A stretch of 63,619 nt of DNA, the filler included, from Sphacelaria rigidula (Eukaryota), in assembly GCA_964200075.2 (NCBI GenBank). It is 10 parts of 10 records of this genome, joined end to end, with 100 filler letters (N's around TTAATTAATTAA, not from the genome) between each part and the next. Parts side by side here need not be neighbours in the genome. Positions count along the whole stretch, not along the records: positions 12,746 to 19,017 come from CAXNAA020021090.1; 9 more parts are not named here. One strand, given 5' to 3'. Of the stretch, positions 1-50,977 are shown piece by piece; the first letter of the stretch is position 1, and each line of letters begins with the position of its first letter. The position numbers and the translations under genes are program-made. A model generated the notes under the pieces. The model was not told where the DNA came from. It did no database searches and saw nothing but the letters and a program-made list of their open reading frames with translations.

Positions 1-1390
1 TGGTGGGTACACAGAGCGGGGCTTAACCACACGCCCCCCCCCCCCCCCCCCCAATTATGCTCAGTTCATTTCTGGTTACCTATTCAGCTCCGGTGGAGTT
101 TGCATGGTGTGTGTTTGGTGAGTGAAGAGTGGAGTGAAAAGTGAAAGGGATTAATACGAGAAGATATTATAGTCCCCCCCTGTCCTGAGCACGTCGTTCA
201 AGAGGCCTTCGATAACGCTAGCGATAAGATAGGTTCGTAGAGCAGACGCCGTACAGTCGAAGATTTGCCGACTGCGTGCGCACTGAGAAAATATACTGCA
301 TTTTTCGCGGGGACGGTTGAACAGTTGAGTGAACTTTTGAGCATAGAACTCGCGTGGTGATTGATGACTGGCAGCAAGAAGCTAAAACACGATCGAGAGA
401 CAGTTGAGCAATGGACAGCCCAGAGGAAGTAAGCACTGAAGAGATGCTAACCAAAACGTTACGACTGATGGAAGCCATGCAGAGAGAGTTGATCGAAGCG
501 GCGAAACGAGACGCCATCACTGAATGTGTGTGTGAGCGAGAGAGAGAGGGAGAGAGAAAGAACCGGCCCACAGGGCATTCCTGTGCACAGTGATGCAATT
601 AATCGATTAAGCAACCCAGGGTTATCCCCGAAACAAGGCAAGATAACTACGTAGGAGGGCAAAGAGCTCACACGAACATTGTGCGAGAACGTAACTACAA
701 CAAAAATGTTTTCGTCAGAGTGAGAGAAGAGGATACGATCGAGAGTGAGAAGGGGGGGGGGCGAAGGGGTTAATCGACGAATGAACCGTTTCATTCCCCA
801 AAGGCCCCTGCACGAGGCTCGATACAGCTTTGTGTAGTGCAGTACTGGGCGGCTGAACTATTTATTTTGTAATTTGTTCGTAGTTGGCAATGTTGTTAGA
901 CTCTTTCGCGTACCATCACTCATCACATTAGAGATCTGACGATACTCATATCCCCTCCACAGTTCAATAAACAAAATCTTGTGTTCAATATTGAGTGGCT
1001 TACAGGCTGACCGGCCATCGGAGGTCCTAGTACGTTTTAGCCCAGATTCTGACTCTTCGGTATTTTCCGTCGATCGAGCCTGTCTCGATCGTGTTTGTGA
1101 AGAGATGTACAGGATTGTTTTCTAAAACTCCTACCTACTCATTGCACTAGAGCCGAAAACCTGTGCTTCACGGTCAATAATACCCTCCTGGTGAACGGAT
1201 ATCTACTCGTATCGCCCGATAACACCAAACAGCACTAACTTGAGCACTGGGGGGGAAAGACGATTCGGGCAATTACAAAAATCTACTGATGCTAGCACTT
1301 TCGAGGTCTACCCAAGAGCAGTCGCGAGAAAAAACCCTTCTGAACACAAAATACACACATGAACAGATAGCACCCTGTTGGGCACGTGTA

Positions 1391-1556
1391 CAGGGTTCAG
1401 GGAAACTGTGCAGTGTTTGTCGCGGTGATTTTGCTGTAGGGTGTTTTTTGCGCCACACAGTACGCTTCACAGGGTTTCAGGGAAGCTGTACAGCGTTTGT
1501 CGCGGTGATTTTGCTGTAGGCTTTTTTTTCGCGCCGCGCAGTACGCTTCACAGGGG
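1391..1556 (+). repeat. Tandem duplication, about 79-bp unit x2
   Basis: cagggtt(t)cagggaa.ctgt.cag.gtttgtcgcggtgattttgctgtagg...cagtacgcttca occurs twice head-to-tail. Confidence 0.85.
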
Positions 1557-2589
1557 TTTGTCACCCCGAGTGCTACTCATTGTTGTTAATATGCTGTAGA
1601 GCTCTTCTAGTGCACATGCAATACACTCCATATAGCATGGTACTGGCAGAAAGAAACGGTCGAGAAATTGTAGTGGTAGGAATCGCACTCACGATTTTGA
1701 ACCCGGGAGTGCATCCAGGTGTACATTGAGCTACTCGATTTGTTATTGCCACCGAAATATTTTTTATGCTTTTAATAACTATCGAGCAAAAGCCTCCATA
1801 AACAAAAGCATGATTGAGTGATTTTTTCCAATCATTTAGTTTTTGTTGGTAGACACTGGACCGCGGGGTTTTCATAAGCTATGTGGATTCATATGCGAGG
1901 TACGTATCCTCAATCCAGCATTCTTACTACGCCTGCAGCGGAAGCGTCACTTCAAAGCACAGGCGTGTGGACATACACTCATAAGCAGTGTGTGGGATCT
2001 CTATTCAGCGGCAGCTGTTGAGAATTCTATCCTTTAGCCCATTTGGTACATGAACTGGGGGGCAAGAGGATGAATTACTTTCATCAATTTTTTCTGCGTG
2101 TCGGATCCCATACGCTGATAACGGTGCAGTATGCGGGATATGCAGCTACACACTCTTCAGAGGGTGCGGTAGCGTACACTCGTAGCAGCACTGCAGGCAA
2201 GTAGGTAGCTACTGGATTGTTTCTGCCCAATTCGAAAGTGTGCATGTCTGCAAACGACGACCACCGCGCTTGACCCCAACGGCTCCAACACCGCTGCCGG
2301 GGCACACACCGTCCAAGGAGTATAATATCGCCAACCCACGACGCTTTTTACTCTACGACATAGCCAAGGGTGTCACTAGCAAGGTTCCTGATGATTCTCG
2401 CATGCTTGCGAGCGCCACGGCGTGCACCAAGGGCAGCTCTGCGGAGTATTGCGCTGAGGTACGAAATATTCGGCGTTCGACACACTCGAAGGCTTGGCGA
2501 AACAATCTAGCCGCTTCCTTTTTGGAGAACGTCGAGCGCCAGGTGCGAAAACGCCTAAAATCTTGGCGATCTCCGCAAAAACTGTGTCG

Positions 2590-3480
2590 ATAATGACGGG
2601 GTTAGCACACACCACGCTATTTTCGCGGAATCATTTATACTAGAAGAGTATTAACAGAGACTGCTGCGAGTACGTTTGATCATACGGGCGCAGACGCTGG
2701 AAAAAGACCGGTTTCGACAGGAAACGATGGCACCGAGTCGGGGTTTTTTGTAGCTGTGGATGATATTGAAAAATGATTTTCAGGGCACTCACTGCAACTC
2801 TACATCCGGTAGTCGATACATAAGTAACACTGGTTATCGACCGGGCATAACAGACCTGTTGCCTACCCTCGATCATCAAAAGAGTCTATGCCAGTGGCCT
2901 GTATCTTATTGATATATATGTGTTTAACGTTTGACTTGCCTAGATCATTTCACAGCGACAAAGGGTGGGGTTTCGCAGCATCGGTAGTAGGGGACCTACG
3001 TAGATGGCTTTGGGTATCACTGGACTAGGGACCCGCAAATCACCCAAAAGGTCAGAGTGCAGTTGAAAAGGCAGGGGCATGGATGTATGATGTATTATCC
3101 GAACTGTGAAATCATATCCTGACAGGTGGGACGAGTACGTGAATCCAGCGGGTTGGATCAAATGTGCACTCCTAGATCGATCCGTCTTCCGACATGCCCC
3201 CTTTTCGAGCCCTCTTCGGCCGTACTCCTCGGACTGCCCTAGACACTCTGGTGCCACATATGGACGGCAATGACACGTCTGGAGAATTTCGTAGAACAAA
3301 GGAAACGAACACTAGAACAAGTGAAACAAGTCCTGGTAGCACGACGAAATAACATGCTAAGAGCACAAAACGACCGATATACAAGTTTCACAATGCAACT
3401 TAAAGGGGAGTCGGATGGGGTGAGATAACTGCTGTTGGTGCGAGAACAAGAAGGTACTTGGCGTGGAGATGAACTCCAAC
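2590..3480 (+). mobile_element. Degenerate Ty3/Gypsy LTR-retrotransposon integrase (pol remnant)
   Basis: Manual translation across stops and frameshifts gives GLAHTTL..NHLY*KSINRDCCEYV (zinc-binding region), LVIDRA, CLTFDLPRSFHSDKG, LRRWL..LD*GPANHPKGQSAVEKAGAWMYDVLSEL, YPDRWDEYV and MPPFRALFGRTPRTALDTLVP. These are the rve DDE core and C-terminal motifs in the expected order. Confidence 0.85.
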
Positions 3481-6273
3481 CACAGAATGGCAATCATTGC
3501 CTCACCCGTAATCAGTGTAGAAACAATCAATTAAAATATTTGGGGTTGAACACTAAAATGGGGTTCAAGCGACATATTTGTTTGCAGTAATGGCGCGAAA
3601 CGGTTACACCACGAAAAAACATCTCCCCCCCAAAAAATCTGCAGCAGTCAAGCAGTTGTGGCTAGGTGCACCGAACGAATGCGGTGTACACGCGTGTCGA
3701 TGACGATGCCACCGGAGGAGTAGCGGCAGAGAGGAAGCCCCTTGCCCGCATCCTTTACATGTCCTCGCTTGTCGATTCCCAATCGCTCGAGAGACTGGCA
3801 TCATGCATGTTACCAGAATGTACCCAGTTTCCCATGTGCCGGTAGGCAGGTTATTGCTGTACAGCCCCCCAAAGAAATTCAAGGTGCGAAGGGATCTCGT
3901 CTCTTCTTGTCTGTGGAGCTTACCAATGCAAAGGTGGATTCCTCTCTGCATCTCGTTTTGGACAGGACGCGCCTCTGTGCGCTGCAGAACACGTCCTTGA
4001 AAAACAGGGCGATATTTCTGTCACCGCTACCGTTTTCTGTCATACACATGCCAGTAAGGACGGTGCTGCTGTGGAAATAACAGACTCAACCGCAAGTTGG
4101 GGGGTGTTATCCATCGCTGATTTTACACGACATGTGTCCTCGTACCTTTGCGTGCGCAACAACAAGAAGAGCGTACCACACGCCAGTTTGGGGGATGTAG
4201 AGATCAAACACTTGTGGAGGCTTTCCTGTCATGCGGAGTGAAAAACGATACCTATGGTGGTGACCTAACTGTTGCTGGCGTGGCGCATGAGGGCGCCTCT
4301 ATGCTGCAACCTTGAGCACCCACTCACCCTCTGCGTGTGTCGCTGTGGCTTTTGATAATCCCCAACTGAGGAGGTCATTCATTACAAGCTGGGGCGAGAT
4401 ATATTTCACGGGGAACAAGAGTGCTCTATGAACAGCCAATTGTCGTTGCATTTGAGACCCATGCCATCAACCGCCGACCGCAAAGGTCTTGTGGCTTTCA
4501 AGCCACGCGTGCGGCAGTACGCCAAACAAACCTGGTCAAAGCTAGCTTTCGTTTCTGTACTGTCTGTACTGACTATCGCGGCGTCTGTACAATCACCTCC
4601 TAACATCACCGAGATTGACAAGGGTTGTGAAAATGAAACAGTTTCATTGTTTCAACTAATCCCACACCGTGCACCATGTAAGGGATTCTCGAGGACTGCG
4701 GGAAAGTAGCCGCCTTGGGTTCGGTCAACCGTGCGAGGATACGGTCGAACAGCAATACCACACTATGCCGGGATTGGCATAAATCAATCAGTGTAGAACC
4801 GACGTGAAATTGACAGCTTTACGTTCCGAGCAGAACGCTATGCACCTGGAACGGTTTGCATGTGGAAAAACGCAGATTTTTATGAGGAAAAACTCTCTGT
4901 GACCCCGTCAGTGCTACATGAGCTGGCAAAAACTCTATCGTCGTTTCTTGAATACCTAGTGGGGGGGCGGGGAAGCCACCCTCCCGCAGCTCTTGAGAGT
5001 CCTTTACATTGTGTTTGAAGCCCCCGTTTCATTTCACATGGTCCCGGGTTGGCTGCGCTAGTCTCAGTCCAATTAGGTATGACTGGTAAAACAGTTGGTG
5101 AATCTATTGGGGGGGATATTATAGGGTGGATACTGACCTTGTAAAGAAGACCATGGTGAAGTAATTCGACTGCGGGTCCTGGCACCCTAACCTGCTCGAA
5201 GATGAGAGACTGAAAATAATGGGATATGTCACTACCCGTGATCCCTACCCGCTTGGAAAAAGAACATATCCCAAAATGATCTCTGAGACCCATATTCGTC
5301 CCTCGATAATAAACTGCCACTCACTGCTGAACACTATAAACGACGCCACCTGTCCTTCACCAAGGAATGGCCTACATGCTGAACGCTGTGCGTGCGTGTC
5401 GCTTCATCGCTACTAGAAAATAGCAACAGGCAAGGTCGTATCAAGCAGCTTCAGCCTTAGGCCGCGGCTTTTGATACGTAATATGGATGTTATTGGAGCT
5501 AGTCGCGGTATGTTACGACAGTAAACATGCGTAGCTCGCCTGACCAACGACGTAGCTCATATTCCCATTGCGTGAGTTGCCCCATCCATGCCTGACAAGC
5601 GCAAAACATACTCGTCTGTTGAGACACGTGTGCAAGTACATGGAAAAGTGAGGTTTTACAAGAAGACTGCTATTCGACAGTAGTCAAGAGTTCTCCGGCA
5701 AACGTTTGCAGCGGTCAGTAAGCTAATGGGTCTCATCAAATTTTCAGGAGTTCGTACCGCCCAACCATAAACGGTGGGGTGGATGGAGTCAACCTAGCGA
5801 TGTCGTAAATGCTGTTGATCATGATTCGGCGAATGACAGACAGATTGGAATTTGTACCTGCTTTTTGTACAAATTAAGTAAAACCTATCGCTTCACGTCG
5901 CCATCGGTCTCGCACCAAGCGACATTCACATTGGTCGCATGCCGAGGTTGCCGCTACGATTGATCTTGCGCACTAATTCACTCACACTCGTTACTTGTTT
6001 TGCCACAGACCCAAGCAATCGATCTGACTTGTCGTCCAAGCTTTGCTTTGCTATGAGCCGAGCCGGCGATGACGTATCGCCTAGGGAAATGGCCTAAAAA
6101 GGTATACCTTCTCGTTTTTTTGCCTAGGAAAGGTACGAAAAATGGCCAGAATCGCGAAAATAGCCACAAACACGCCATATTGACCCTTTACGCTTCGGAG
6201 TTTTCATGCACATCGTTCGGGGGGGGGGGGGGGGCTTGGGCACCCGGTTCTCTAAAAAAAAAACTACAACAAA

Positions 6274-6373
6274 NNNNNNNNNNNNNNNNNNNNNNNNNNN
6301 NNNNNNNNNNNNNNNNNTTAATTAATTAANNNNNNNNNNNNNNNNNNNNNNNNNNNNNNNNNNNNNNNNNNNN
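6274..6373. other. Artificial contig linker (N44-TTAATTAATTAA-N44). Identical linkers at 12646-12745, 19018-19117, 25390-25489, 31762-31861, 38134-38233, 44506-44605, 50878-50977, 57249-57348
   Basis: Nine identical 100-bp spacers with a six-frame stop core separate contigs of decreasing length (6273 to 6271 bp). This is an assembly concatenation, not biology. Confidence 0.98.
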
Positions 6374-10562: not shown

Positions 10563-12745
10563 TGAAGATGAACGATTCAAGTCGTCGCAAGAAAAAGGAA
10601 GGGATTGAAGAATCGTTGAAAAATTATTACACTGCAACTGAATCTGAGGGGTGAGGAAAGAAGAATGAAAACGAGGGATGAGTGAAGAAGCTGAACTGGA
10701 GAAGCATATAATAGAGTGGTAGCGTCAAGTTAGTACGACGCTCGGGGAGGAAAGGAGGGTGGAGAAATAACGCTAGGGCGAGATGTGTGTGTCACGCGCT
10801 AACGGCTAACGAGCGTACAGTACATACAGTTATAGCAAGGCAGGCGGTCCTTTTTTTTTTCTCGTGTGGTGCTCGTGGTGATAATGACCCAAGTCTCCTG
10901 TACCTGTAGTTGAACGGCTGAAGGAGGTGCTGCTGCTGCTGTGCCCACTCTCTTTTTTTTTCTTCTTGCCCGGCGTTTTTTGTCATTCGGTATTGAGTTA
11001 GGAGGGGGGGGTGGGGGGCGTTTTTGTTGTCTGTGGGTGTGTGAATGTGTCCGTGTTTTTTCGTTCTTCGCGTTTTGACTTTGCCAGAGCTCCCTGGTGT
11101 GTCCCAGTGTGTGACGGTGTATCTTCACCTCGCGCAACGATCCTGTTAAGCCCCATCAAAATGCCCACCTTTCTCGGAAATGTGTTATCTCGAATTAACG
11201 CTAACGCCAACCCTAACCCCAACCCAAAGGCAAAAGGACAAACCTCAGGCGAGGGGGGTGAAAAGTGCCCCCTAATGTTCCTGGAGTGTGGCGTTGGTGA
11301 ACTTCAATCGGCGCGGCAGGCACGCGCCGATTTTGACCAGGAAGCATTTCTGCATACGTTAGGTGCACTTGGAACTGCCAGCCCCACTACTGATCCATAT
11401 ATCGGTGTTCACGCTCAAATCGAGCAACGAAAATCCGGGAAAGTTCCATCCGACCAAGTAGTGGAAGTCTACAGCTTTTTTGTCGGTGAAAATGTTTGTA
11501 AAAGATACGTGCATAGGGTGTATGCCATGTGCACACGTGGGGAAGTGTTTCATGCCGGTCTGACGCGTAGGACACCTTCGTGCGTAGTGATACATTGGGG
11601 TTGCGAAGTCGCACCGTATTCCTGATGTTACTGTCTGTTGGCCTTCCTCCCGTGTGATTTAACAGCGTTTTCGTGAGATTGAGGAGATAGAATATGGTTG
11701 AGGGTGAAGAGCGGTCAATTACTGAATGAACGGCTTCAGTTCCGGAATGCCCCTCCATGAAGCCCGATATGCTTTCTACAGTTTTTTGCCACTAAAGCCC
11801 TTGATACCCCTGAAAAGGATATCGATGTGTAGCTGTAAGCACACAGATGATGAGAAATTGGTCAAGTTGAAGCGAATGATCAAACCCACTCTCGATCAAC
11901 GCCTTCTCAAATCTCACAAAAACATTGCATGTAATATACCGAAAGGTGTGGACTGGCGTTCGAAACAGATTGGATGGAAACACACGCACTGTTATCAAGT
12001 TATCCCCTTGTCTTGGGGAACATGAGTTTTTACAGGACCTCCCATCCTCGGAGTACGTCTGTTTTAATAGAAATGCTCGAAGTACACCCGCGTGCGTTGT
12101 TCTTCACGTCGACTCTATCCCCCACCCCTTCCATCCCCTTCATGGGGACGAGAGCGTAGTCTCAAAAATGATTAATCGTCCGTTCCTCGACCGGTACGGG
12201 CCGGCAAGTTGCTATCTATTGGGCTTTACATCACCGCTCCCGCAGCCGGCATCGCCTAGCACCATCAAATTAATTGTTCTTACCCCTCGCGTCCTGACAT
12301 TTTCGACGACGGTATCGTCGGTCGGTGTTGAAAACCACAAGCTCCGATGGATTGGGCGAAAGCCCTCACCATAAAAATGACAGGGTTTGAGGAAGTAAAG
12401 TCTACATGCTATGACAAAAACGGAGCACACCGAGGAGCTGGGCACGCTCGGGATCGTTCTCGTCAATGTTGCCCGCATGAGGTGCTTAATGCAGTCTGAA
12501 GCGAGCTATGATCATGCGTTGAATGGTCATTTTTTTGTGTCAGTTTTGGAGCTGGTTTGAACAGTGTTTTCGTGAGATTGAGAGTGAAAAGCGGTCAATC
12601 AGTGAATGAGAAGTTTCAGTTCCGAAATGCACTTCCACGAGGCCCNNNNNNNNNNNNNNNNNNNNNNNNNNNNNNNNNNNNNNNNNNNNTTAATTAATTA
12701 ANNNNNNNNNNNNNNNNNNNNNNNNNNNNNNNNNNNNNNNNNNNN

Positions 12746-12820: not shown

Positions 12821-15633
12821 GGTACACGCCTGAAACCTTCTTAGACGTATTCTCAGACTATCTGTGAGTTCATATCAATGGTTTTGAACGATATGAGATA
12901 TGTCTGGAGTTTCTGTACATGTTTACTTGGTATCGATAAGAAGATCCAAGACATGCTATTATCAGCACACTCTACGTGACCCCTTTTTCTCTGTAAAACC
13001 GGTCACACAACTCCCACAATATGTCTCTGCTGTTGTACAAATGACCGACTGGCATCTGTACTTATTGGGTATTAAGACGTACACACGTGCAACAGAGAGC
13101 TGAAGATATTTGACCACAGTACGTGTATATATACAGATCGGCGTATTCGCGTGCTTTCAATGAGATTCGGCAGATCTCGATATTTTTCTCTTCAAGTACA
13201 CTGACCACGTCCTGTACGAAGGAAACAAATCACTGGCTCCCAACCATCGGATGGATCGCCGTCCAGCACACGGGATATCCGTTTTGCATTTCCAGCGATC
13301 GAGGAGAACACAATCAGGACAGATATGGACATCCCCAGATACATACCCAGTTGAGAACAACATTCTCCGACGTTTGCAGGTATTCTGCGATTTTGAAGCA
13401 GCGATTTACAATGCTGTATGGTTTTCTCCGAGTCTTGGGCATCATTCCTAAAGGTTGGCAAATCGTTTATTCCATGAAAACGTGGCATGTTTCATATCAG
13501 ATATCTAAAGCAGGGGTATATTTTTGATCTGTCGAAAGTATTGAAAACTCATGCGGCATCGACAAGAATGTTCGTTTATCTCGCTTGCCTTGTAAAACGA
13601 ACGGAGAGCACGCGCGAACAGTAAACGCGACCAACGCAATGCCGCCCGTCCGACCATCGATACTGCATTGCGTCAAGGTGATTGGTACACGTCCTAGGCA
13701 GCATGCGTTGCTCTTTGTGACCTCAGCACCGCGCGGCAATGTATAGTCGGTGTGCTCCACAGTACATTCACTTTTTGCAATGCTGGTGGTGAACACTACG
13801 CTTGCACATGGGTCTCACATCGTACATGCTATTGGCGTCGCACATTACTTGGGTTGGGGGACTATGGTTTGGTGTTGCATGCACCCTCTTGCTCATCATC
13901 ACTCCCATGCCATGCCGGCGAGCGCTTCGTGATGTGTTCATGCTCTGCCTCATAGGTGACTGTTAAAAAGACGTGCCCTGTGCAGGTAGGTTTGATCATT
14001 CATGAATCCCATGGAAAGTAACAATTTATTTTCTGGGAATAACCTAATAATCCTGTCCCGTTTATCCATGGGTTTGTTCTGTATTACTTCGCACGGTGGG
14101 AATTCCACCATGGTGCAGTCAACACTACTTGTCATACTTGTCATATTTCCTATCCGCTAGTCTACCTAACTAGCTCCACTTCACCAGTATAGCGCAAGGG
14201 CAAACCACAGTGCGGTGATCCGGGCCTTCGATCCACTGTACTCTGCTGAGACTCCCAACATAACGTATGGTGTGTGCCCAGGACAGCTTTGAGTATTCGC
14301 TGGGATATTCGAAACATGTGCATCATACATCTTTGTGTTTATGTGTCGATAGTCCTGCATCCAAAAAAGATCTACACCACTTCCTGTCGTGAGTTTATCT
14401 CTCATCAGCGAGTTGCTCCCCTTCTTATACGGTGTCTTGTAGAAGGAACCCTCACGGGCTTGAAGCTACGCAAGAACAGCTGTACAGGATCGCCTTCACA
14501 CCTTGGTGTAGCTCATTCAAGCCGGAAAGCGTATACATGATCGCTTAACCTCATCCGGATGGTGCGCAGGGCGCGATCTGCACACATATAAGCCGTGTGA
14601 GCACAGGACTTGCTGCCTTGCATCAAACTGTACCATTGCCTTCGAATTCACGGCGAGCGCAGTTCCCATGTGTCGACACCACATAGTACCCCATCAAGTA
14701 CGATTCATGTGGCGTCGTATATGTAGTCTCACCACTGTGGCTTTTGAACACCAACGGCAGCCACGGCAGAACACAGCACAACGGCTCATTGGTACCATTC
14801 CAGTGATGAAATTCCGGTGCCTTTGCGTATAGAACCTCTTGTGGAGCCTGTCTTACATGCGATCAGAAGTCATGTTGATCCAGTACAAGCACCAGAAACA
14901 AATCAAGTTGCGGGGAGCGAATGCCTCCTTTCCATGACGGCGCGTAGCTGACAGGGCTTTTTGAACCATCTCACCGCCGATACACGGACCGTGTTGCGAT
15001 AGTGCATCTGAGAGTTGCCGTCTTCACCTGGGGTGCTGTGCAAGCTAGAATACATCGCCGACGATATTTACCGAGGAATACCCAGCAGGAAATAACGATA
15101 AGAACATGGCCTGGACCATGTATCGCCTTCGCACGCCGGCGTGTATCTGCTAACCCTTGTCCAGCCGGTATCGATGCATGAACCGTGTCCCCCTAGTTCG
15201 TCTTGGCCTTCTCGTGGTATATGATGCCCTTCAGATGCTTCATTCGCCTTCGACCCCTACTTCTATAGTGTACAGGATATCTCGTTTGCTGGAACTCTCT
15301 TGCAAGTGGTGCTGCAGTTGTTACGATCAGTTTACATGTATCGTCGTGTAAGTTGAATGCAGGCAGCCTCTTTTTCTCCGGAGTATGTACCCCCAACAAA
15401 AGTGCCGATCGCTCTGTAAAGCGTGCCAACTCGCTTTCACACATGGCTCACGGAAGACTTCCCGCCGTTTTGGCATTTGCGCTACCGTGAGCAGTTAGTC
15501 TTCGAAGAAGCACCACGCGAAGGACATCACGGCCGACGTCGCTGAAGAAAATGGCATCACCACGGGCTGCTCCGAGCCGCCACGCCACAGTGCACAGGGC
15601 CACACGGCGGAGTTTTGCCCCAAACATGCGAAG

Positions 15634-18501
15634 TTGAAAGTGGTGAATGTGAAAAACAAGTGCGGTGAGGAGGGCTGCTCCTACCGGCCGCCTCAACGAG
15701 AAGCAAGAGGCGAGAAGGAGGATTTCTGCTTTGAGCACTTTAGGGCGGGGATGGTGAATGTGAAGAAGAGGTGCGGCGACGAGGGCTGCTCAAAGCGTCC
15801 GTCGTATGGTGTAGTGGGAAGCAAGAAGGCGGAGTTCTGCTTTGAGCACTCTAGGGCGGGGATGGTGAATGTGGTGAAAAAGAGGTGCGGCGGCGAAGGC
15901 TGCTCCACTCAGGCGTCTTTCGGTGTGGTAGGAAGCAAGAAGGCGGAGTTCTGCTTCAAGCATGCCATGGCGGGGATGGTGTATGTTTTGAAGAAGAGGT
16001 GCGGCCACGAGGGGTGCTCAAGGCATCCGTCTTTTGGTGTGGTAAAAAGCAAGAGAGCGGAGTTCTGCTCCAAGCATGCCAGGTCGGGGATGGTAGATGT
16101 CGTGAGCAAGAGGTGCGGCGAGGAGGGCTGCTCAAAGCATCCGTCGTATGGCTTAGTAGGAAGCAAGGCGGAGTTTTGCTTTGAGCACGCCAGGGCGGGG
16201 ATGGTGGACGTGAGAAGCAAGAAGTGTGGCTACGAGGGCTGCTCAAAGCAGTCGTCTCATGGTGTAGTAGGAAGCAAGAAGGCGGAGTTCTGCTTTGAGC
16301 ACGCCAGGGCGGGGATGGTGGACGTGAGAAGCAAGAAGTGCGGCTACGAGGGCTGCTCTACGAGGCCGTCTCATGGTGTAGTGGGTAGCAAGAAAGCGGA
16401 GTTCTGCTTTGAGCATGCCATGGCGGGCATGGTGAATGTTTCGAAGAAGAAGTGCGGCCACGAGGGGTGCTCACGGCATCCGTCTTTTGGCGTGGTAAAA
16501 AGCAAGAGAGCGGAGTTCTGCTCCAAGCATGCCAGGTCGGGGATGGTAGATGTGGTGAACAAGAGGTGCAGCGAGGAGGGCTGCTCAAAGCACCCGTCGT
16601 ATGGCTTAGTAGGAAGCAAGGCGGAGTTTTGCTTTGAGCACGCCAGGGCGGGGATGGTGGACGTGAAAAGTAAGAAGTGTGGCCACGAGGGCTGCTCAAA
16701 GCAGTCGTCGTATGGTGTAGTAGGAAGCAAGACGGCGGAGGTCTGCGCCGAGCACGCCAGTGCGGGGATGGTGATGGTGCGGAACAAGAAGTGTAGCAAC
16801 GGGGGCTGCTCTAAGCATCCGTCGTATGGTGTGGTAGGAAGCAAGAAGGCGGAGTTCTGCTTTGAGCATGCCATGGTGGGGATGGTGAACGTGAGAAGCA
16901 AGAAGTGCGGCTACGAGGGCTGTTTAAAGCATCCGTCTTACGGTGTAGTAGAAAGCAAAAAGGCGGAGTTCTGCTTTGAGCACGCCATGGCGGGGATGGT
17001 GAATGTTGTGATCAAGAGATGCGGCTTCGAGAGCTGCTCAATACGGCCGTCTTATGGTGAAGTGGGAAGCAAGAAGGCGGAGTTCTGCTCCAAGCATGCC
17101 ATTGCGGGGATGGTGAACGTTGTGAACAAGAGGTGCGTCTACGAGGGCTGCTCCACTCAGGCGTCTTATGGTTTGGTGGGCAGCAAGAAGGAGGGGTTCT
17201 GCTCCAAGCATGCCAGGGCAGGCATGTTGATTGTGCGGAACAAGAGGTGCGGCTATGAGGGCTGCTCCACTCAGGCGTCTTATGGTTTGGAGGGCAGCAA
17301 GAAGGCGGAGTTCTGCTCCAAGCATGCCAGGGCCGGTATGGTGAATGTGAGAGACAAGAAGTGCTATTTCGAGGGCTGCTCTACGAAGCCGTATTTCGGT
17401 GTAGTGGGAAGCAAGAAAGCGGAGTTCTGCTCCAAGCATGCGATGGCGGGCATGGTTAATGTTGTGAACAAGATGTGCGGCTACGAGGGCTGCTCGAAGC
17501 ATCCGTCTTTCGGTGTAGTGGGAAGCAAGAAAGCGGAGTTCTGCTCCAAGCATGCCATGGCGGGGATGGTGAATGTCCGAGTTGGTGAGTGCGGCTACGA
17601 GGGCTGCTCTACTCAGCCGTGTTTTGGTGTAGTGGGGAGCAAGAAGGCGGAGTTCTGCTCCAAGCATGCTAAGGCGAGGATGGTGAATGTCAGAGTTGGT
17701 GTGTGCGGCTACGGAGGCTGCTCTACTCAGCCGTCTCATGGAGTAGCTGGAATCAAGAAGGCGAAGTTCTGCTTCGAGCATGCCAAGGCGGGAATGATGA
17801 ACGTTGTGAGCAAAAAGTGCGGCGGTGACAGCTGCTCCACTCAAGCGTCATATGGTTCAGTGGGAAACAAGGCGGACTCCTGCTCCAAGCATGCCAGGGC
17901 GGAAATGGTGGATGTGGTGAAGAAGAACTACAGCTACGAGGGATGCTCCAACAGGCGGTCGTTCGGTGACACGGGCAGCATAAAGGCGGAGTTCTGCTCT
18001 GAGCAAGCGAGGGCGGGAATGGTGAATATGGGGAGCAAACGGTGCAGTGAAGGGGCGTGCTCCAGATGGGTTATCCGCAAGAAGCACAACGTTGTTGATG
18101 AAGAGACGTCATGTCGAGAACACGCTAGTGCACGCAACGCAGCTGCGGTGTCTGATACCGCGAAGCTCAACACTTGGGAGGGCGCCCCCGGCCGTGGCCC
18201 GACGGAGGCCAGTGGAGAAAGCGTTGCTGATGTACAAGGAACGAAACGCAATCACGCGGCATTCTCGGCTCCTGTTGCAAACGACTTTGTTGGTGCTCGC
18301 CGCAATGCCGATGCCGGTCCCAGGCAGGGTGTGAGAAAACCGTTGCTCTCGGGATGCCCACTTTTAAGGACTGGTGGAAGGGTGACTTTCAGAACAAGAG
18401 CAGGAGCAGGGATGAAGGTAGAGGTGGCAGTCCCTTCGCCCACTCCCAGTGGCGATGAGATGAGGGAGTATCGTAAGTTGGCTGCCTCTTCGAGCAGTTG
18501 A
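15634..18501 (+). CDS. EsV-1-7 cysteine-rich repeat protein (about 22 tandem 37-38 aa C-x4-C-x15/16-C-x2-H repeats), intronless. First in-frame ATG at 15751; possibly a disrupted 15385-18696 gene
   Basis: 955-codon open frame with unit consensus KKCGYEGCSKHPSYGVVGSKKAEFCSKHARAGMVNVV. This matches the EsV-1-7 motif known from Ectocarpus siliculosus virus-1 and the expanded brown-algal host family that includes IMMEDIATE UPRIGHT. Confidence 0.92.
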   Translation: MKVVNVKNKCGEEGCSYRPPQREARGEKEDFCFEHFRAGMVNVKKRCGDEGCSKRPSYGVVGSKKAEFCFEHSRAGMVNVVKKRCGGEGCSTQASFGVVGSKKAEFCFKHAMAGMVYVLKKRCGHEGCSRHPSFGVVKSKRAEFCSKHARSGMVDVVSKRCGEEGCSKHPSYGLVGSKAEFCFEHARAGMVDVRSKKCGYEGCSKQSSHGVVGSKKAEFCFEHARAGMVDVRSKKCGYEGCSTRPSHGVVGSKKAEFCFEHAMAGMVNVSKKKCGHEGCSRHPSFGVVKSKRAEFCSKHARSGMVDVVNKRCSEEGCSKHPSYGLVGSKAEFCFEHARAGMVDVKSKKCGHEGCSKQSSYGVVGSKTAEVCAEHASAGMVMVRNKKCSNGGCSKHPSYGVVGSKKAEFCFEHAMVGMVNVRSKKCGYEGCLKHPSYGVVESKKAEFCFEHAMAGMVNVVIKRCGFESCSIRPSYGEVGSKKAEFCSKHAIAGMVNVVNKRCVYEGCSTQASYGLVGSKKEGFCSKHARAGMLIVRNKRCGYEGCSTQASYGLEGSKKAEFCSKHARAGMVNVRDKKCYFEGCSTKPYFGVVGSKKAEFCSKHAMAGMVNVVNKMCGYEGCSKHPSFGVVGSKKAEFCSKHAMAGMVNVRVGECGYEGCSTQPCFGVVGSKKAEFCSKHAKARMVNVRVGVCGYGGCSTQPSHGVAGIKKAKFCFEHAKAGMMNVVSKKCGGDSCSTQASYGSVGNKADSCSKHARAEMVDVVKKNYSYEGCSNRRSFGDTGSIKAEFCSEQARAGMVNMGSKRCSEGACSRWVIRKKHNVVDEETSCREHASARNAAAVSDTAKLNTWEGAPGRGPTEASGESVADVQGTKRNHAAFSAPVANDFVGARRNADAGPRQGVRKPLLSGCPLLRTGGRVTFRTRAGAGMKVEVAVPSPTPSGDEMREYRKLAASSSS
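15652..18123 (+). repeat. Coding tandem repeat, 114-bp unit (111 bp in three units), about 22 copies
   Basis: Recurrent gagggctgctc ... agcaagaaggcggagttctgc ... gcggggatggtg at 111-114 bp spacing. Confidence 0.95.
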
Positions 18502-19147
18502 AGAAGCACGCGCGGTGGTAGTGACTTTGTCAGCAGTGGTGGTGAAAGTACGAGGTGGCTCTGTAGTTCGGTGGCAGTGGTACCTGAACGCCTGGGCGGA
18601 CTTGATGATGCCGCTTCTGAAGAGGCGAAGAAGAATTCGAACGTGAAGTTGGAGCTAGGAGTGTCCAGTGCGTATCCTCCGGCGTCCGAAGCATGATGGA
18701 TGGCACGATTCCTTATACCGGCGCTGTTGCGTGGATTAATCTAGAAGGGTGTTGGTGTGTGCCCGTGTATGTTGTCAGCGGCCTCAAACGACAATTGGTC
18801 GACAAGATAGTTTTTTCTTCCATTGATGCGAAGCAGTTTGTGAGACTGCGGCTTCCTGATTTCCCAGCGCTACGTTCCACCAGATTCTCTTCGAGGCGCA
18901 GTTTTCATGCCTGCTCCTACCTTGTGCTTTGGTGACAATTTGCCAAGAAACAGCAAATTGTGCGAATTGAGGTTTAACTCTGAATTGAGGCTCAAGTGGG
19001 CAACCCGACTTGCGAACNNNNNNNNNNNNNNNNNNNNNNNNNNNNNNNNNNNNNNNNNNNNTTAATTAATTAANNNNNNNNNNNNNNNNNNNNNNNNNNN
19101 NNNNNNNNNNNNNNNNNTTGGATCAGCGGTCAACTTTTTTCTCCCTT

Positions 19148-25091: not shown

Positions 25092-25264
25092 TATTTGAAG
25101 AAGAAACGTTTTCACACCCGGGCAGGCATCATCGAAGTGGCCCAAAATCATCCAAAAAATATCTTCTAGTGAAGCCAAATCGCGTAAAAATATGCCTCCG
25201 GCGGGCCCCCCTCACCAACCGGGGGGTGTCGGTGTTCGCGACTTCGCCGCGACACCTCTGTATT

Positions 25265-25318
25265 GATTATGATTATGATTATGATTATGATTATGATTAT
25301 GATTATGATTATGATTAT
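25265..25318 (+). repeat. (GATTAT)9 microsatellite
   Basis: Perfect hexamer run. Confidence 0.95.
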
Positions 25319-36451: not shown

Positions 36452-36540
36452 CCCCTGACCCTAACACTAACCTTAACCTTAACCTTAATCTTAACCTTAA
36501 CCTTAAACTTAAACTTAAACTTAATCCTAACCCTAACCAT
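36452..36540 (+). repeat. Degenerate interstitial telomere-like (CCCTAA/CCTTAA)n tract
   Basis: About 14 hexamers ccctaa/ccttaa/acttaa, preceded by the palindrome gtccctgcagggac. A shorter similar tract lies at 11197-11226. Confidence 0.8.
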
Positions 36541-41290: not shown

Positions 41291-41899
41291 ATCGGCCATT
41301 CCTCCTCTCCCCACTTCCAAGATGAGAAGCCAGGAGAATTGAAATGGAACGAGGCGCGGTGCGGGTACCATGACTTCACGGACCCCTACCCCTCGAGACT
41401 GTGATTTCGATAACGCCCCCTATTCGCTTCTCTTCTGTCGTCCTTAACCCTAATCCTCTGGAGGTGGGGAGGGGGGGCGGGTGGAATAGTTATTTTGGTG
41501 ACGAGGCATTGTCTGCATATGGAGGGCCGTGGTCAGGCATACCTGACATCCTGCTGCACGCCTTGTAACTGAAACTCGTGGCTGTGCAATACTCCCGCCG
41601 CCAAGCGTCCATGCCCTTTGAGCGTCCATCTGCGCCTGCAAGAAACACCTTCCAGAAAAAGATTTTAAAAAAAGTGCGGGACTGTCAGTGGGGAAAATCC
41701 CAGAACAGAAAAATTGCTCGTTACACGTACACACATGAAGGAAAAGCAGACCAGGACTTCTCTGTACTTAGTGTGCATTGGCACTTGATATGGTGAGATG
41801 CGCCCGCCGACTGAGGATGGCTGCATCAGATTTGTACAATTCGACCACCCTCTGCTCCTCGCCCGCTTCCTGCGCTCCCGCCCCTCCCGAAACGGACAG

Positions 41900-44381
41900 A
41901 TGGACGACCCGGCGGGGTGCACAGCGCTTGTGCTCTACGCCGGCGATGAAGCTGCCCCCGCCGCCGACAACACCCCCCCACATTCTCAAAATGACGCCGC
42001 CTTGGTCAGCTCCGCCGGAACCGCTGGAGACGAGGGGGGCGCCGATGAAGGAGGTGGCGGCAGCGGAACCCTCAGTGCAGCGTCGGGAGTGGCGGCGGCG
42101 GCGGGGACCGTGGCGGCAGTGACAGCGGTGAAGTCAGTGCCCGAACCGGAGCCGAGGCGCTTCGTGGGCCTTTCAAATCAGGGCGCGACGTGCTACATGA
42201 ACAGCCTGTTGCAGACATTGTACATGACGCCGGAGGTGTGTGGGGGGTGGGGGGTGTACTCATGGTCTTGCATGCGAGGGGGGGGGGGGGGGGGGGGGGG
42301 CACGTACCGTGTTCTTGGGTGAGGCTTTGGCTGCCATATTGTGTAAATGTGCATTGCCGACCAGGGTTGAGGGTTGATTCCGGGTGCCGTGTGTGTTACT
42401 GGATGGCTGCGGTACAAACTCGAGAAGGGGTATGTGTGGATGGTGCCAAATGGTGCCAAATGGTGCCAATTACAGCCAGTCTCTGTTTACCCCGTTTCCC
42501 TTCCCCTCTGCCCTTTCTCTCCCTTCGCCCGCCTTCCGTGAGAGCATATATATCCGCGGTCGTCAAGGCCACGTTTTTGAGAAGTTTATTCACCCTTTCG
42601 GGACCGGACCCCCACCAACAAGGTGTGGGCGTCCCTCGTGAATTGGCACCATATTGACTTGAAAAACGACTGAAAATGATACCCTTTCACAAGTGGACCA
42701 GCGCTCGCAGTCAAAGAGATATGCTCCTGGTTAGTTGGGGTCCGGTCCCAAAAGGGCTAAGTGGTTACCAATTGATAGATAACACATCATATTATGTGAA
42801 TAAAGCATTGAGCAACTTGCATTTGGGCGGCGGGGGGGGGGGGAGACGAAAAATACCCCTCCCCGGGGATAGTTTCTACCGTGAATTTTAGGGCGGTATC
42901 CACGGTCTCGGCCTATAGTGTGAGAATGACCACGCTTTGGCATGATATGAGAGTATGTTTGAGATACGGGAAACATGAAAAAATGAAGGAACATAAGTCA
43001 GTTACGTGGGCATTTCACACTCTGAACAATAAAAAATACTGTCAACAAGTGTACTGTGTACAGTATCGCCTAATACGCCTATTGCAGCAGACAACAGATT
43101 CCATACTGTACGCAGTACGTTTTTTACGGCAAGATCACTGTCCAGGGTGGGGGGCATTTACACACGAATGGCGATACCTTCCTGCTTTATGGACTCTCTT
43201 TCTCCCCATCTCCTTTCTCGGGGATAATTCCAACGCATCCCCTCTCCGAACTTTCTCGGTGAGAAAGGGGGTGTTATCCGACGTGTGAGCTATTAGCGGC
43301 CGGACAACAATGACTATGAACATGTAAGCAGTACCTAAGAAAGCCTGCAACCCGAAGTAGTGTAACCTTTTGTTTTTCTTGAACGGGATTACAGACACCT
43401 CGGGGAAGATCTTGTCCTATCCCCTCCCTAAGCGTTTGTTTCTCCCTCTCGTGTTTTTGCGGTAACCGTGATGGTGGTCGAGTCAGATCATATCGTGCGG
43501 GGTGGGATAACCTCATCTCCGCTCAAACAGAATGATCGAACTACGTAGTGCTTGAATGATGAGACATCCATGACGCAGTGTAAGCCGTGGCTGTCTCTGG
43601 AAGTGGCTGTACCAGAAAGTAAAGCAGCTCATGAGGTTGCCATCCATGTGGAAGATGATCACCACGGCTCATGCTGAACAATCTCAGCAGGATGCAGCTC
43701 ATCCCCCATGCGACTAACGGCGCTTCGTGGTTGGTCAATGCGAGCCTAGTCCCGCGAAAACCCGGTGTGCTCCGTCTCGGCTTTGCAGGGACGCGAGGTC
43801 AGTGGTCATATGACCCCTGCATGCAAGATCGTGAATACCCTCCTCTCTTGAGTCCGTGCTGGAGTCATAATTTACCGTCAGAGTCTGTTCGATACGAGTG
43901 GCAATGCCTGTGGGCTCGCGAGCCTCACAGAACTTACAGAACTGTCCGGCGTACGGTATTACTGCTGTACAGAAAAACACGGATCTATAGACCGTGCCCC
44001 TCTCCTCTATGACTACGGAAACGTTTCGCTTACTCACACATGCGCACACACAGACACTGCTCACCCAGCGTACGTACGGCACGAATATATATATAGTATA
44101 TATATATATAGCACGCCCCAGCACTTACGTCATATTTCCGCCACTGCTTGACGTGACAGTTTCGAGCAGCGCTGTACGCGTGGCAACACGAAGAACCTTC
44201 GTCCAACTCCATTGAGGGGGGAAACTCGGCGGCGGCGGCGCCAACGGGGGAGGGGGAGGCGGAAGACCCGAGCGAGAGCATCCCTTTGCAGCTGCAGCGG
44301 CTCTTCGGGCAGTTACAGATGAGCGACCGAACCTGCGTGGAGACACGAGCGCTCACGGATAGCTTCGGTTGGACCGCGCAG
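41900..44381 (+). CDS. Ubiquitin carboxyl-terminal hydrolase (peptidase C19, USP7/USP47/USP40-like), 5' part. Exons 41900-42235, 44160-44381
   Basis: Cys box FVGLSNQGATCYMNSLLQTLYMTPE splices (GT-AG, phase 0) to FRAALYAW...SIPLQLQRLFGQLQMSDRTCVETRALTDSFGW, typical of the USP7/47 subfamily. Confidence 0.93.
42256..42277 (-). mobile_element. Minimal (about 22 bp) 3'-terminal stub of family A embedded in a poly(G) tract
   Basis: ggggggtgggggt-gtactcatggtcttgcatgcga-G run; the reverse complement gcatgcaagaccatgagtac matches the family A terminus gcatgcaagatcatgagtac. Confidence 0.75.
42593..42756. mobile_element. piggyBac-like MITE (164 bp)
   Basis: TIRs ccctttcgggaccggacccc / ggggtccggtcccaaaaggg with CCC..GGG ends. 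Flanks ttca and ctaa are each one mismatch from a TTAA TSD. Confidence 0.75.
43450..43843 (+). mobile_element. Family A, long diverged copy (intronic)
   Basis: Colinear with 58610-59023 from g.taac..tgatg...gcgggg..gg...ctccgc through gcatgcaagatcgtgaataccc. Confidence 0.85.
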
Positions 44382-49257: not shown

Positions 49258-49747
49258 AGGGAATTCTGGCTCCCTGTCAACCTGTTCAAACACACATGGG
49301 AAACTCCTGGCTCCCTGTCAACCTGTTCGGACAGCATGGGAATTCCTGGATGCCTGTCAACCTGTTCGAAAGCGCATGGGACACTCCTGGCCCCCTGTCA
49401 ACCTGTTCGAAAACGCATGGGAATTCCTGGATCCATGGCAACCTGTTCGAACACGCATGGGAATTCCTGGCCCCCTGTCAACCTGTTCGAAAGCGCATGG
49501 GACACTCCTGGCCCCCTGTCAACCTGTTCGAACACGCATGGGAATTCCTGGATCCATGGCAACCTGTTCGAACACGCATGGGAAACTCCTGGCCCCCTGT
49601 CAACCTGTTCGAAAACACATGGGAAATCCTGGATCCACGTCAACCTGTTCGAACACGCATGAGTAAATCCTGGCCCCCTGTCAACCTGTTCGAAAACACA
49701 TGGGAAATCCTGGCTCCCTGTCAACCTGTTCGGACAGCATGAAAATT
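49258..49747 (+). repeat. Minisatellite, 39-41 bp unit x12
   Basis: Consensus gggaattcctggccccctgtcaacctgttcgaacacgcat. Twelve caacctgttc cores with no unique spacers. Confidence 0.95.
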
Positions 49748-50977
49748 CTATTCCGCATGCATAGTCCGACATTTGATATTCGATGGTGATTCGGAATAGT
49801 TCTGTTTCCACAGTGAAAGCACATTACTCATGCACTGTTAGACTGAGTACATAGGTGGATTTTCAAGGAGGAGATAGTCATTTTGTACAGCCATCCTGAA
49901 ACAGCATCACAATAAATAAAACGGTAGCATGTCGTAAAACCAAAGGGTGTTATCGCAATTCAATGTGCGGAGATGGAAGCGGTTTTTAATCCAGCGGGTC
50001 TTGTCGAGTTTGAGTATGTGTAGCGTAGCATATTGTAGCGTGGTTCCATTTCAGTCAGCTGTATCAAACTGCAAAAATCCTAGCGTGTAGCAACACCAGA
50101 GTCAATTGTGAACAAGTCTAACGTTAGTCCGTCCAGCGGCGCACCCCGAGCGTGTGGTTACAGCATTACGAATTGCGAACAAGACCAGGATTGTTTTTGT
50201 CAGAAACCGCCCAGACAGTGGTGCGATATACCTATTATTTTGTTTTACAAGTGCGGAACAATTGACCAGAATTCGTGTGCAGAGCAATCATGAAGCAGGA
50301 GATTTGGCTCTGTCAAGCGATCGATGAGTGTGCAAAATACGTCAGTTGTTGGAAGAGCGCTAGCGCTTGTTTGCACACTCACACCCAGGGCACCACTCAG
50401 TCAAGACGTGAATGCAGCAATAAAATTTTGTGTGCACAACGGGCACGACGGTTGCAAGCAGTAGTACAGACGGAGCAACACAGTACAGCAGCTCGAACCC
50501 TAGACCGCGGTGCGGGTAGTCCATCTGCGTTATGCATACTTTTCCCAAGTGAAAATTGATGCCAATTCAGCATGTAACCTACCCTCGTGGTCAAAGGGTC
50601 AATACTCACAACGATAAGGCGGCTTACAGCCCCCCCTCTGCGCGGTGTACAGAGCAGCATTGTTTGTTTCATCCACATGACGGGGTGTAAAGATTCATCG
50701 CTTCAACGCTTTCATTACTGTGTGCAAAAGATTTGACCTGCCATGGCGTGTAAAGCAAGCATAGCATGGCATGGTCGTTTACGTGGTCGCAGGTGATACC
50801 CCCCTAGACACTTTCCACGATAGCCCCCCCCCAAAACCAGCTAAAATTGTCACGAAAAAAATGGCCGTACAGCACCTNNNNNNNNNNNNNNNNNNNNNNN
50901 NNNNNNNNNNNNNNNNNNNNNTTAATTAATTAANNNNNNNNNNNNNNNNNNNNNNNNNNNNNNNNNNNNNNNNNNNN

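Follow-up and report, generated by a model that had tools for sequence, protein, structure and literature searches.

Two groups of proteins provide close comparisons for the gene analysed here, which lies on the plus strand of a 63,619-nucleotide stretch of DNA from Sphacelaria rigidula (GenBank assembly GCA_964200075.2; the whole stretch is referred to below as the window) and which encodes a long array of EsV-1-7 repeats. KRAB zinc fingers and PRDM9 carry a long array of fingers in one frame, have many paralogues, and contain only a few fast positions per finger. The units of TAL effectors (TALEs) are near-identical, metal-free helical hairpins of 33-35 amino acids in which the variable residues are adjacent. 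Judged by its sequence, the gene belongs to the EsV-1-7 family and is neither a TALE nor a KRAB zinc finger nor a nuclease; by analogy, it may work like a TALE or a KRAB zinc finger. The explanation favoured here, to which we give a probability of roughly 0.55, is that it encodes a many-fingered, sequence-specific DNA-binding nuclear regulator which evolves as KRAB zinc-finger genes do.

The likeness to KRAB zinc fingers and PRDM9 lies in an uninterrupted array of fingers, a family of paralogues, an array that is rewritten faster than its flanks, and short effector motifs. The differences are that the fingers of the window gene have three Cys and one His (C3H), that its units are 38 amino acids long, and that its effector motifs are C-terminal; neither C2H2 nor KRAB was matched in the gene by Pfam. 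Among the traits expected by this analogy, array turnover is seen, and the ratio of nonsynonymous to synonymous change (dN/dS) at the fastest column of the repeat, column 9, is above 1 in most, though not all, tests. With TALEs the gene shares near-identical tandem units, about two variable residues per unit, and degenerate end caps, but its unit is a Cys/His module, its variable residues are 11 apart, and its predicted structure is, at low confidence, mostly strand and coil. Membership of the TAL family itself was considered and rejected, given this 38-residue Cys/His unit and PF19114 as the only Pfam match.

In the excerpts of the literature drawn on here, EsV-1-7 proteins form the largest orthogroup of the brown algae and carry no other Pfam domain (bioRxiv 2026.04.27.720984), and the hypothesis that they are zinc-finger transcription factors has already appeared (PMC12629598); the family and the way it has expanded have also been described in print. 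Zinc binding by the repeat is itself a proposal in these excerpts, and MIGE elements are described just as zinc-finger open reading frames (bioRxiv 299784). The family includes the developmental regulator IMM of Ectocarpus, which is described as having five units of the same repeat where the window gene has 22, and its molecular function is so far a hypothesis. Within the excerpts of the open literature, a scope that leaves aside Macaisne et al. 2017, subscription papers and supplements, no account was found of site-level selection, a code, tail motifs or nuclease fusion in EsV-1-7 proteins.

The array and its variable positions

The original prediction, which was made from the DNA alone, described about 22 head-to-tail units of 38 amino acids with near-invariant C-x4-C-x16-C-x2-H ligands and degenerate units at both ends, and assigned them to the EsV-1-7 family; all of this holds. 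The array (15661..18123, plus strand), delimited by a tandem repeat, by unit alignment and by PF19114, consists of 22 units of 37-38 amino acids, the first-Cys codons of which run from 15661 to 18043. The tandem repeat at 15713-18027 has a period of 114 nucleotides, 20.4 copies and 79% matches. Units 2-20 (19 units) hold all four ligands, and units 1, 21 and 22 are degenerate; across units 2-21 the three Cys positions are kept in 19/20, 20/20 and 20/20 units and the His in 19/20, and units 5, 9 and 20 have a spacing of x15 instead of x16. PF19114, the sole Pfam family of the gene, matches 21 stretches with 977 bits against a curated cut-off of 25. The units have a mean net charge of +3.0 and presumably bind zinc.

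In these respects the gene is typical of the EsV-1-7 family, which is large in brown algae. Those of its homologues that bear organism names come from brown algae (Ascophyllum, Ectocarpus, Sphacelaria, Laminaria, Pylaiella and Discosporangium), and this genome contains 4575 candidate repeats, 150 of which were scored, all above the cut-off; the size of the family here agrees with the range known for brown algae from print. Protein 7 of the virus EsV-1 carries the same domain as the window gene (E 6e-20). The arrays of two paralogues, L036 and L076, are broken over several frames.

In its ligand spacing and first knuckle the unit looks like the first of the zinc sites in plant SBP domains. This likeness was not used: PF03110 does give weak matches at E<=1, in 90 of 124 fragments, but the unrelated Phe_ZIP matches 101 of the 124, and the weak Pfam matches of the unit to SBP, Zf_WRKY19 and zf-C3Hc3H are no stronger than spurious ones. 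A sequence search gave no solved relative of the repeat, and the Atlas contained no usable match for it beyond PF19114.

If column 1 of the unit is taken as the first Cys, the five-residue patch in which the original prediction saw the variation concentrated corresponds to columns 8-12, and column 36 falls in the linker, three positions before the next first Cys. Variability was measured in a family set of 60 contig stretches of this genome, which yielded 64 frames with at least four units and 906 canonical units of 38 amino acids, the search pattern having passed over any unit without all four ligands or with a different length. The entropies of columns 8-12 in the 906 units are 1.93, 3.18, 1.22, 0.96 and 1.19 bits, so that column 9 is hypervariable, column 8 is two-state and columns 10-12 are conserved, while column 36, at 3.24 bits, equals column 9 in variability. 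The suggested check of per-column entropy thus bears out one position of the patch but not the patch as a whole: three of its five positions are conserved, and the second variable site lies outside it and had been missed. Within the window gene the concentration is also absent, since in its 16 canonical units columns 36, 3, 28 and 38 (1.80-2.35 bits) all vary more than any column inside the patch (0.67-1.75 bits). The 20 five-residue words listed for units 2-21 all match the unit alignment by eye, but these words are not independent, because one block of three units is present twice through duplication (units 4-6 and units 8-10, with DNA identities of 96, 96 and 90%). The restriction of the second patch residue to H, Q, R and K is true of this gene and breaks down in the family, where L, Y, N and T also occur. 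The fast position can be illustrated by column 9 of unit 2 (15796..15798, plus strand), which recurs 24 bases past the start of every first-Cys codon, and the second variable site by the column 36 codon ahead of unit 3 (15877..15879, plus strand); both were picked out by entropy and dN/dS.

The same columns stand out when variability is ranked within arrays. The order is 36, 9, 35 in this genome, 36, 11, 35, 9 in 91 arrays fused to the nuclease-like domain described below, and 9, 36, 35 in 45 other arrays. Column 11 has 3.5 bits in the viral nuclease-fused arrays, as against Ser in 86-87% of host units, and it may be that the algal clade froze this column, one of the putative reading positions.

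A tree-based count over 904 repeats, which is open to distortion by gene conversion, gives dN/dS values of 1.84 for column 9, 1.80 for column 36 and 1.29 for column 35, with 0.40-0.70 for columns 10-12. Comparisons of pairs, which need no tree, were made for four pair sets under two mutation models, and give 1.20-2.02 for column 9, which is above 1 in all eight analyses, and 1.31-2.05 for column 36. (When pairs were matched without regard to the candidate columns, the ratio at the candidates was inflated, control columns reaching 1.44-1.46, and these values were discarded.) When dN/dS was computed leaving out one column at a time (33 columns; 1005 host units and 273 viral units), column 9 ranked first and column 36 second in the host and viral sets alike, and column 11 ranked third in the viral set. 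Relative to its own synonymous rate, column 9 has a ratio of 1.83 under the Kimura (K80) model and 1.56 under the general time-reversible (GTR) model, with p 0.006. Codons that differ by more than one base are also commonest in this column, at 59 of the 138 that differ. The tail of the protein, which provides a rough neutral yardstick, has a dN/dS of 0.95 with the same K80-weighted counting. Taken together, these comparisons make diversifying selection likely at column 9 and leave it ambiguous at column 36.

The arrays themselves turn over. The five closest paralogues of the window gene share with it 0.5-2.9 kb of upstream and 0.6-0.8 kb of downstream sequence at about 80-88% identity (long matches), from which it follows that the genes were copied as DNA segments; yet the arrays of these paralogues comprise 10-20 units and differ in the strings of residues that occupy columns 36 and 9. 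Comparison of arrays with flanks indicates that the arrays change their content more quickly than the flanks diverge.

Viral relatives and algal tails

Arrays of the same repeat, with the same top variable columns, occur in giant viruses joined to a nuclease-like domain that the window gene lacks. A scan of viral contigs with the repeat alone found 23 loci, which include near-identical genes and therefore represent fewer independent cases; 20 of the 23 frames end in one conserved C-terminal domain, two are without it, and one is cut by the contig end. (A second scan, in which 62 of 65 frames have the domain, was excluded from the counts because its query included the nuclease.) More broadly, the repeat profile matches 8240 representatives, and among the best 150 of these, 92 have the nuclease-like domain, with the motif PD...ExDExxH present in 90 of the 92. 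None of the 64 host frames matches the profile of the viral domain.

The Atlas places the viral domain near PvuRts1I-like nucleases (0.90-0.91). The best structural matches of its predicted model, which has a predicted local distance difference test score (pLDDT) of 78.8, are the homing endonuclease I-Bth0305I (3r3p; Z 7.0, root-mean-square deviation 4.5 over 95 residues) and Vsr (1cw0; Z 7.0, 4.1 over 120). Foldseek matched the model only at E>=0.02. The nucleases named among all its structural matches mostly act on DNA (I-Bth0305I, Vsr, McrC and Bax1), and the comparison gives modest support to a Vsr-like fold for the domain. When the repeat was compared with a viral library, 4 of 28 matches were already named 'Endonuclease'. 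The motif ExDExxH differs from the EDxHD of the homing endonucleases. In I-Bth0305I, putative DNA-binding motifs stand ahead of the Vsr-like domain, N-terminal to the nuclease (PMC3239194); where I-Bth0305I has two NUMOD2 motifs, the viral EsV-1-7 proteins have zinc repeats. An Ectocarpus mariner transposase with an N-terminal EsV-1-7 domain is described in the excerpt of PMC12477816.

One viral contig of 370,920 bases holds three short copies of an array-nuclease gene, L105, L106 and L113, whose nuclease-like domains are similar and whose residues at columns 9 and 36 differ. In two further proteins, P0244 and P0235, EsV-1-7 arrays are followed by C-terminal domains that fall outside the viral profile and that by eye are like other Vsr-type nucleases; a Pfam scan named neither. 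These two sequences hint at more than one nuclease fusion event.

In place of a nuclease, the algal copies end in a tail with short motifs, all three of which lie where the original prediction placed them. The basic patch GTKR (18238..18249, plus strand) is an instance of a family motif K[RK]x[RK], which we take to be nuclear-import-like and which is present in 47 of 61 closed host tails (shuffled tails: mean 9.5, maximum 19); the patch is weaker in the window gene, most paralogues adding further basic residues after it. Two psi-K-x-E motifs, presumably of the SUMO-acceptor consensus, follow on the same strand: MKVE at 18412..18423 (K 90% and E 93% conserved) and, past the stop of this copy, the terminal VKLE at 18643..18654 (V, K and E 95, 100 and 95%). 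In the 41 aligned tails that were compared, the K and E residues of the motifs are thus 90-100% conserved, while the median column is 59% conserved. A psi-K-x-E motif lies within the last 30 amino acids of 50 of the 61 closed host frames (shuffles: mean 1.0, maximum 5) and is absent there from 11, and 46 of the 61 have two or more such motifs. Among the 58 nuclease-free representatives of the wider search, 20 have a terminal psi-K-x-E (shuffle mean 1.2), and the tails of two of the 58 resemble, by eye, genes of this genome. Common ancestry explains part of the frequency of the tail motifs.

Gene model and surroundings

The window consists of ten unrelated contigs placed end to end, so that no gene neighbourhood can be read across the spacers, and the genuine context of the gene is limited to contig CAXNAA020021090.1 (12746..19017), which is bounded by N spacers and in which the identical frame of 1000 amino acids was found. 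Runs of N flanking a short spacer with stops in all frames lie at 6274-6373, 12646-12745 and 19018-19117, and then every 6372 bases to 57348; positions 1-6273 map to another contig (C21088) of the same assembly (244 Mb, 27,214 contigs).

A single open frame of 1000 codons (15499-18501) encloses the whole array. Translation would start at the first in-frame ATG, at 15751, which sits immediately ahead of the first intact unit and gives a coding region of 916 amino acids (15751..18501, plus strand) with array and tail uninterrupted. Several printed homologues begin at the equivalent Met, but a first Met of this kind is present in just 28 of the 64 host frames. The frame upstream of it (15499..15750, plus strand) carries one and a half degenerate units, and is either a 5' untranslated region or reached from an upstream exon; in the close paralogues L065 and L080 a stop lies 13-15 codons ahead of the first unit. 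Contigs of two runs from separate studies, X2 (RNA by guess) and X5 (of unknown kind), cover parts of 15751..18501 without differing letters. They give nearly no cover across 12956-15475, a gap which contigs cannot prove, and a loose end at 15493 in run X2 had no match in the window or the genome assembly, so no 5' exon was placed. No IMM-specific N-terminal domain is present in the frame 15499-18501, the upstream exon not having been located nor the IMM sequence aligned.

The frame closes at a premature TGA (18499..18501, plus strand), which is Trp in five of the five closest paralogues and which cuts off the final 64 codons of the family tail, the family-position stop being at 18694-18696. 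Contigs of both runs bridge 18471-18661 with no other letters, and the TGA is therefore not an error of this assembly. The best explanation is that this copy is a partly decayed member of the family that has lost its last tail motif.

Both ends of the contig (12746-12820 and 18944-19017) are very high-copy repeats in the runs compared with it, and some contigs join them; possibly one interspersed repeat flanks the gene on both sides. Elsewhere in the window, on other contigs, are a 40-bp tandem repeat of about 12 copies (49259-49748), an exon that encodes the beginning of a ubiquitin carboxyl-terminal hydrolase domain (41798-42322; PF00443, E 7e-7), and short hexamer arrays at 36453-36538 and 25264-25318, one of which we take to be telomere-like.

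Competing readings and their consequences

According to the favoured reading, the array would bind DNA sequence-specifically, and the short motifs of the tail would give the protein the role of a nuclear regulator: the tail would import the protein, SUMO attached to it would recruit co-regulators, and the outcome would be silencing or activation. Column 9, probably with column 36 (and with column 11 in viruses), would set the preference of each unit. In viruses the array would aim the nuclease at DNA, and the algal array would have retained this DNA-targeting role after loss of the nuclease. The family would turn over by segmental duplication and repeat shuffling in the manner of KRAB zinc-finger genes. 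Of the modular nucleic-acid binding that had been proposed, the general idea gains indirect support from the nuclease-fused relatives, the charge of +3, column 9 and the rewritten arrays; the five-residue patch is not supported.

A number of results tell against this reading. The 60 stretches of the family set were picked among the best-scoring repeats and for long open frames, and are biased to intact genes. Selection at the fast columns depends on the model: dN/dS at column 9 falls to 0.98 [0.81-1.19] in one control matching under GTR, and that of column 36 against its own synonymous rate is 1.61 under K80 and 1.00 under GTR, so that the proposed dN/dS check, in which column 9 is above 1 in most tests, does not give one answer throughout. 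The local significance of column 9 is lost after correction for 33 columns, no viral column is locally significant in the 273 units, and family-wide dN/dS is high (0.47-0.67). Positions on a tolerant surface would likewise rank high in both host and viral sets. The covariation of column 36 with the following column 9 is weak, with pooled z values of 2.5 and 1.9 (0.5 with the preceding column 9), and is not supported in the host alone, where it ranks 79 and 118 of 445. An AlphaFold model of five repeat units is also weak (pLDDT 63.4, predicted template-modelling score 0.29). At low confidence it is mostly strand and coil; the strands are short and lie at columns 12-14 and 31-33, and a helical hairpin is absent. 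It has no Foldseek match at E<=0.001, the best match of a wide comparison, from whose rows SBP structures were absent, having Z 3.0. It is too poor for columns 9 and 36 to be placed on the structure, and hence the structural check that had been suggested could not tell where the variable residues face. On the viral side, the independent cases are fewer than the loci, profiles from Pfam, PDB and PHROG gave no name for the C-terminal domain, the Z of 7.0 for the nuclease matches is below the tool's caution line of 8, and the RAP module of FASTKD4, which we take to be RNA-binding, ties with them at Z 6.8.

The alternative which best survives these results, although it is unlikely, is that nucleic acid is gripped by charge or by a few context-dependent units with no code per repeat, the variable columns being tolerant surface sites spread by gene conversion. 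The two model-dependent ratios near 1 suit it, as does the fact that columns 3, 28, 29, 35 and 38 vary too, and H, Q, R and K are near neighbours by single-base change in the genetic code. A direct search for a code, in which 30 viral genes were compared with their own flanks, recovered none, with scores of 6.5-13.2 (steps 1-2) and 77.5-82.3 (step 3) that lie within or below those of shuffles; because the score of a planted control, 18.4, likewise failed to rise above the shuffles, this search was without power and is uninformative. Tolerant sites are a poorer account of column 9, which exceeds 1 in the tree count, the eight pair analyses and the leave-one-out ranking, next to columns 10-12 under purifying selection, and whose codons so often differ by several bases.

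It is improbable that the arrays recognise RNA, whether of transcripts, viruses or transposons, as PPR and CCCH proteins do. RNA is a frequent target of three-Cys-one-His fingers, and the near-tie between the RAP module and Vsr would fit such a function; most of the named nuclease matches, however, act on DNA, the repeat is joined also to a DNA transposase, and motifs of a nuclear type are present in the host tails. More improbable still is a solenoid that binds proteins or senses ligands, of the immune type seen in LRR and TPR proteins and diversified against pathogen proteins. Fast sites in a fixed scaffold, together with repeat shuffling, are typical of such receptors, and phaeoviruses carry the same domain, but PF19114 is the sole family here, 52 of the 54 nuclease-free representatives that were scanned have no other match at 1e-5, the units are basic, and the fusion partners are a nuclease fold and a transposase. 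Least probable is that this copy and much of its clade are near-neutral debris of a repeat-prone multigene family, since against the premature stop, the lack of an ATG before 15751, the weakened basic patch, a tail dN/dS of 0.84-1.35 in comparison with the five paralogues and the 11 closed frames without the terminal motif stand the retention of 78 of 80 ligand codons across units 2-21 despite a DNA difference of 4-41% between units, a frame open for 1000 codons, and the presence on the gene of contigs from two runs that are RNA by guess.

Beyond the favoured reading of a DNA-binding nuclear regulator, a TALE-like code in the EsV-1-7 units can be put forward tentatively. A larger proposal, equally speculative, would place the repeat alongside C2H2 fingers and TALEs as a third programmable DNA reader of natural origin: a 38-residue unit would read one to a few bases through columns 9 and 36, viruses would possess an array-guided nuclease, and brown algae, which lack classical repressive chromatin marks, would possess hundreds of SUMO-tailed regulators that track transposons or integrated viruses, as KRAB zinc fingers do in vertebrate genomes. 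Ectocarpus has negligible 5-methylcytosine, is without H3K27me3 and H3K9 methylation, and silences its transposons in a way that is largely unexplained, according to the excerpt of PMC12477816. Given that these marks are lacking, a KRAB-like role in transposon silencing in brown algae would be attractive.

For a family whose members include a developmental regulator, the analysis replaces a loosely defined variable patch by just one or two residues in each unit, and these are the same residues in the viral arrays. Because they vary also in arrays fused to a nuclease, readout by cleavage or by SELEX, with swaps of single residues, would be cheap, and the set L105, L106 and L113 is a good small test system. 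If there is no code, the gene is one more member of its family; if a code does exist, the EsV-1-7 repeat would amount to a modular scaffold for DNA binding of a new kind, and would account for the targeting of regulation in brown algae.

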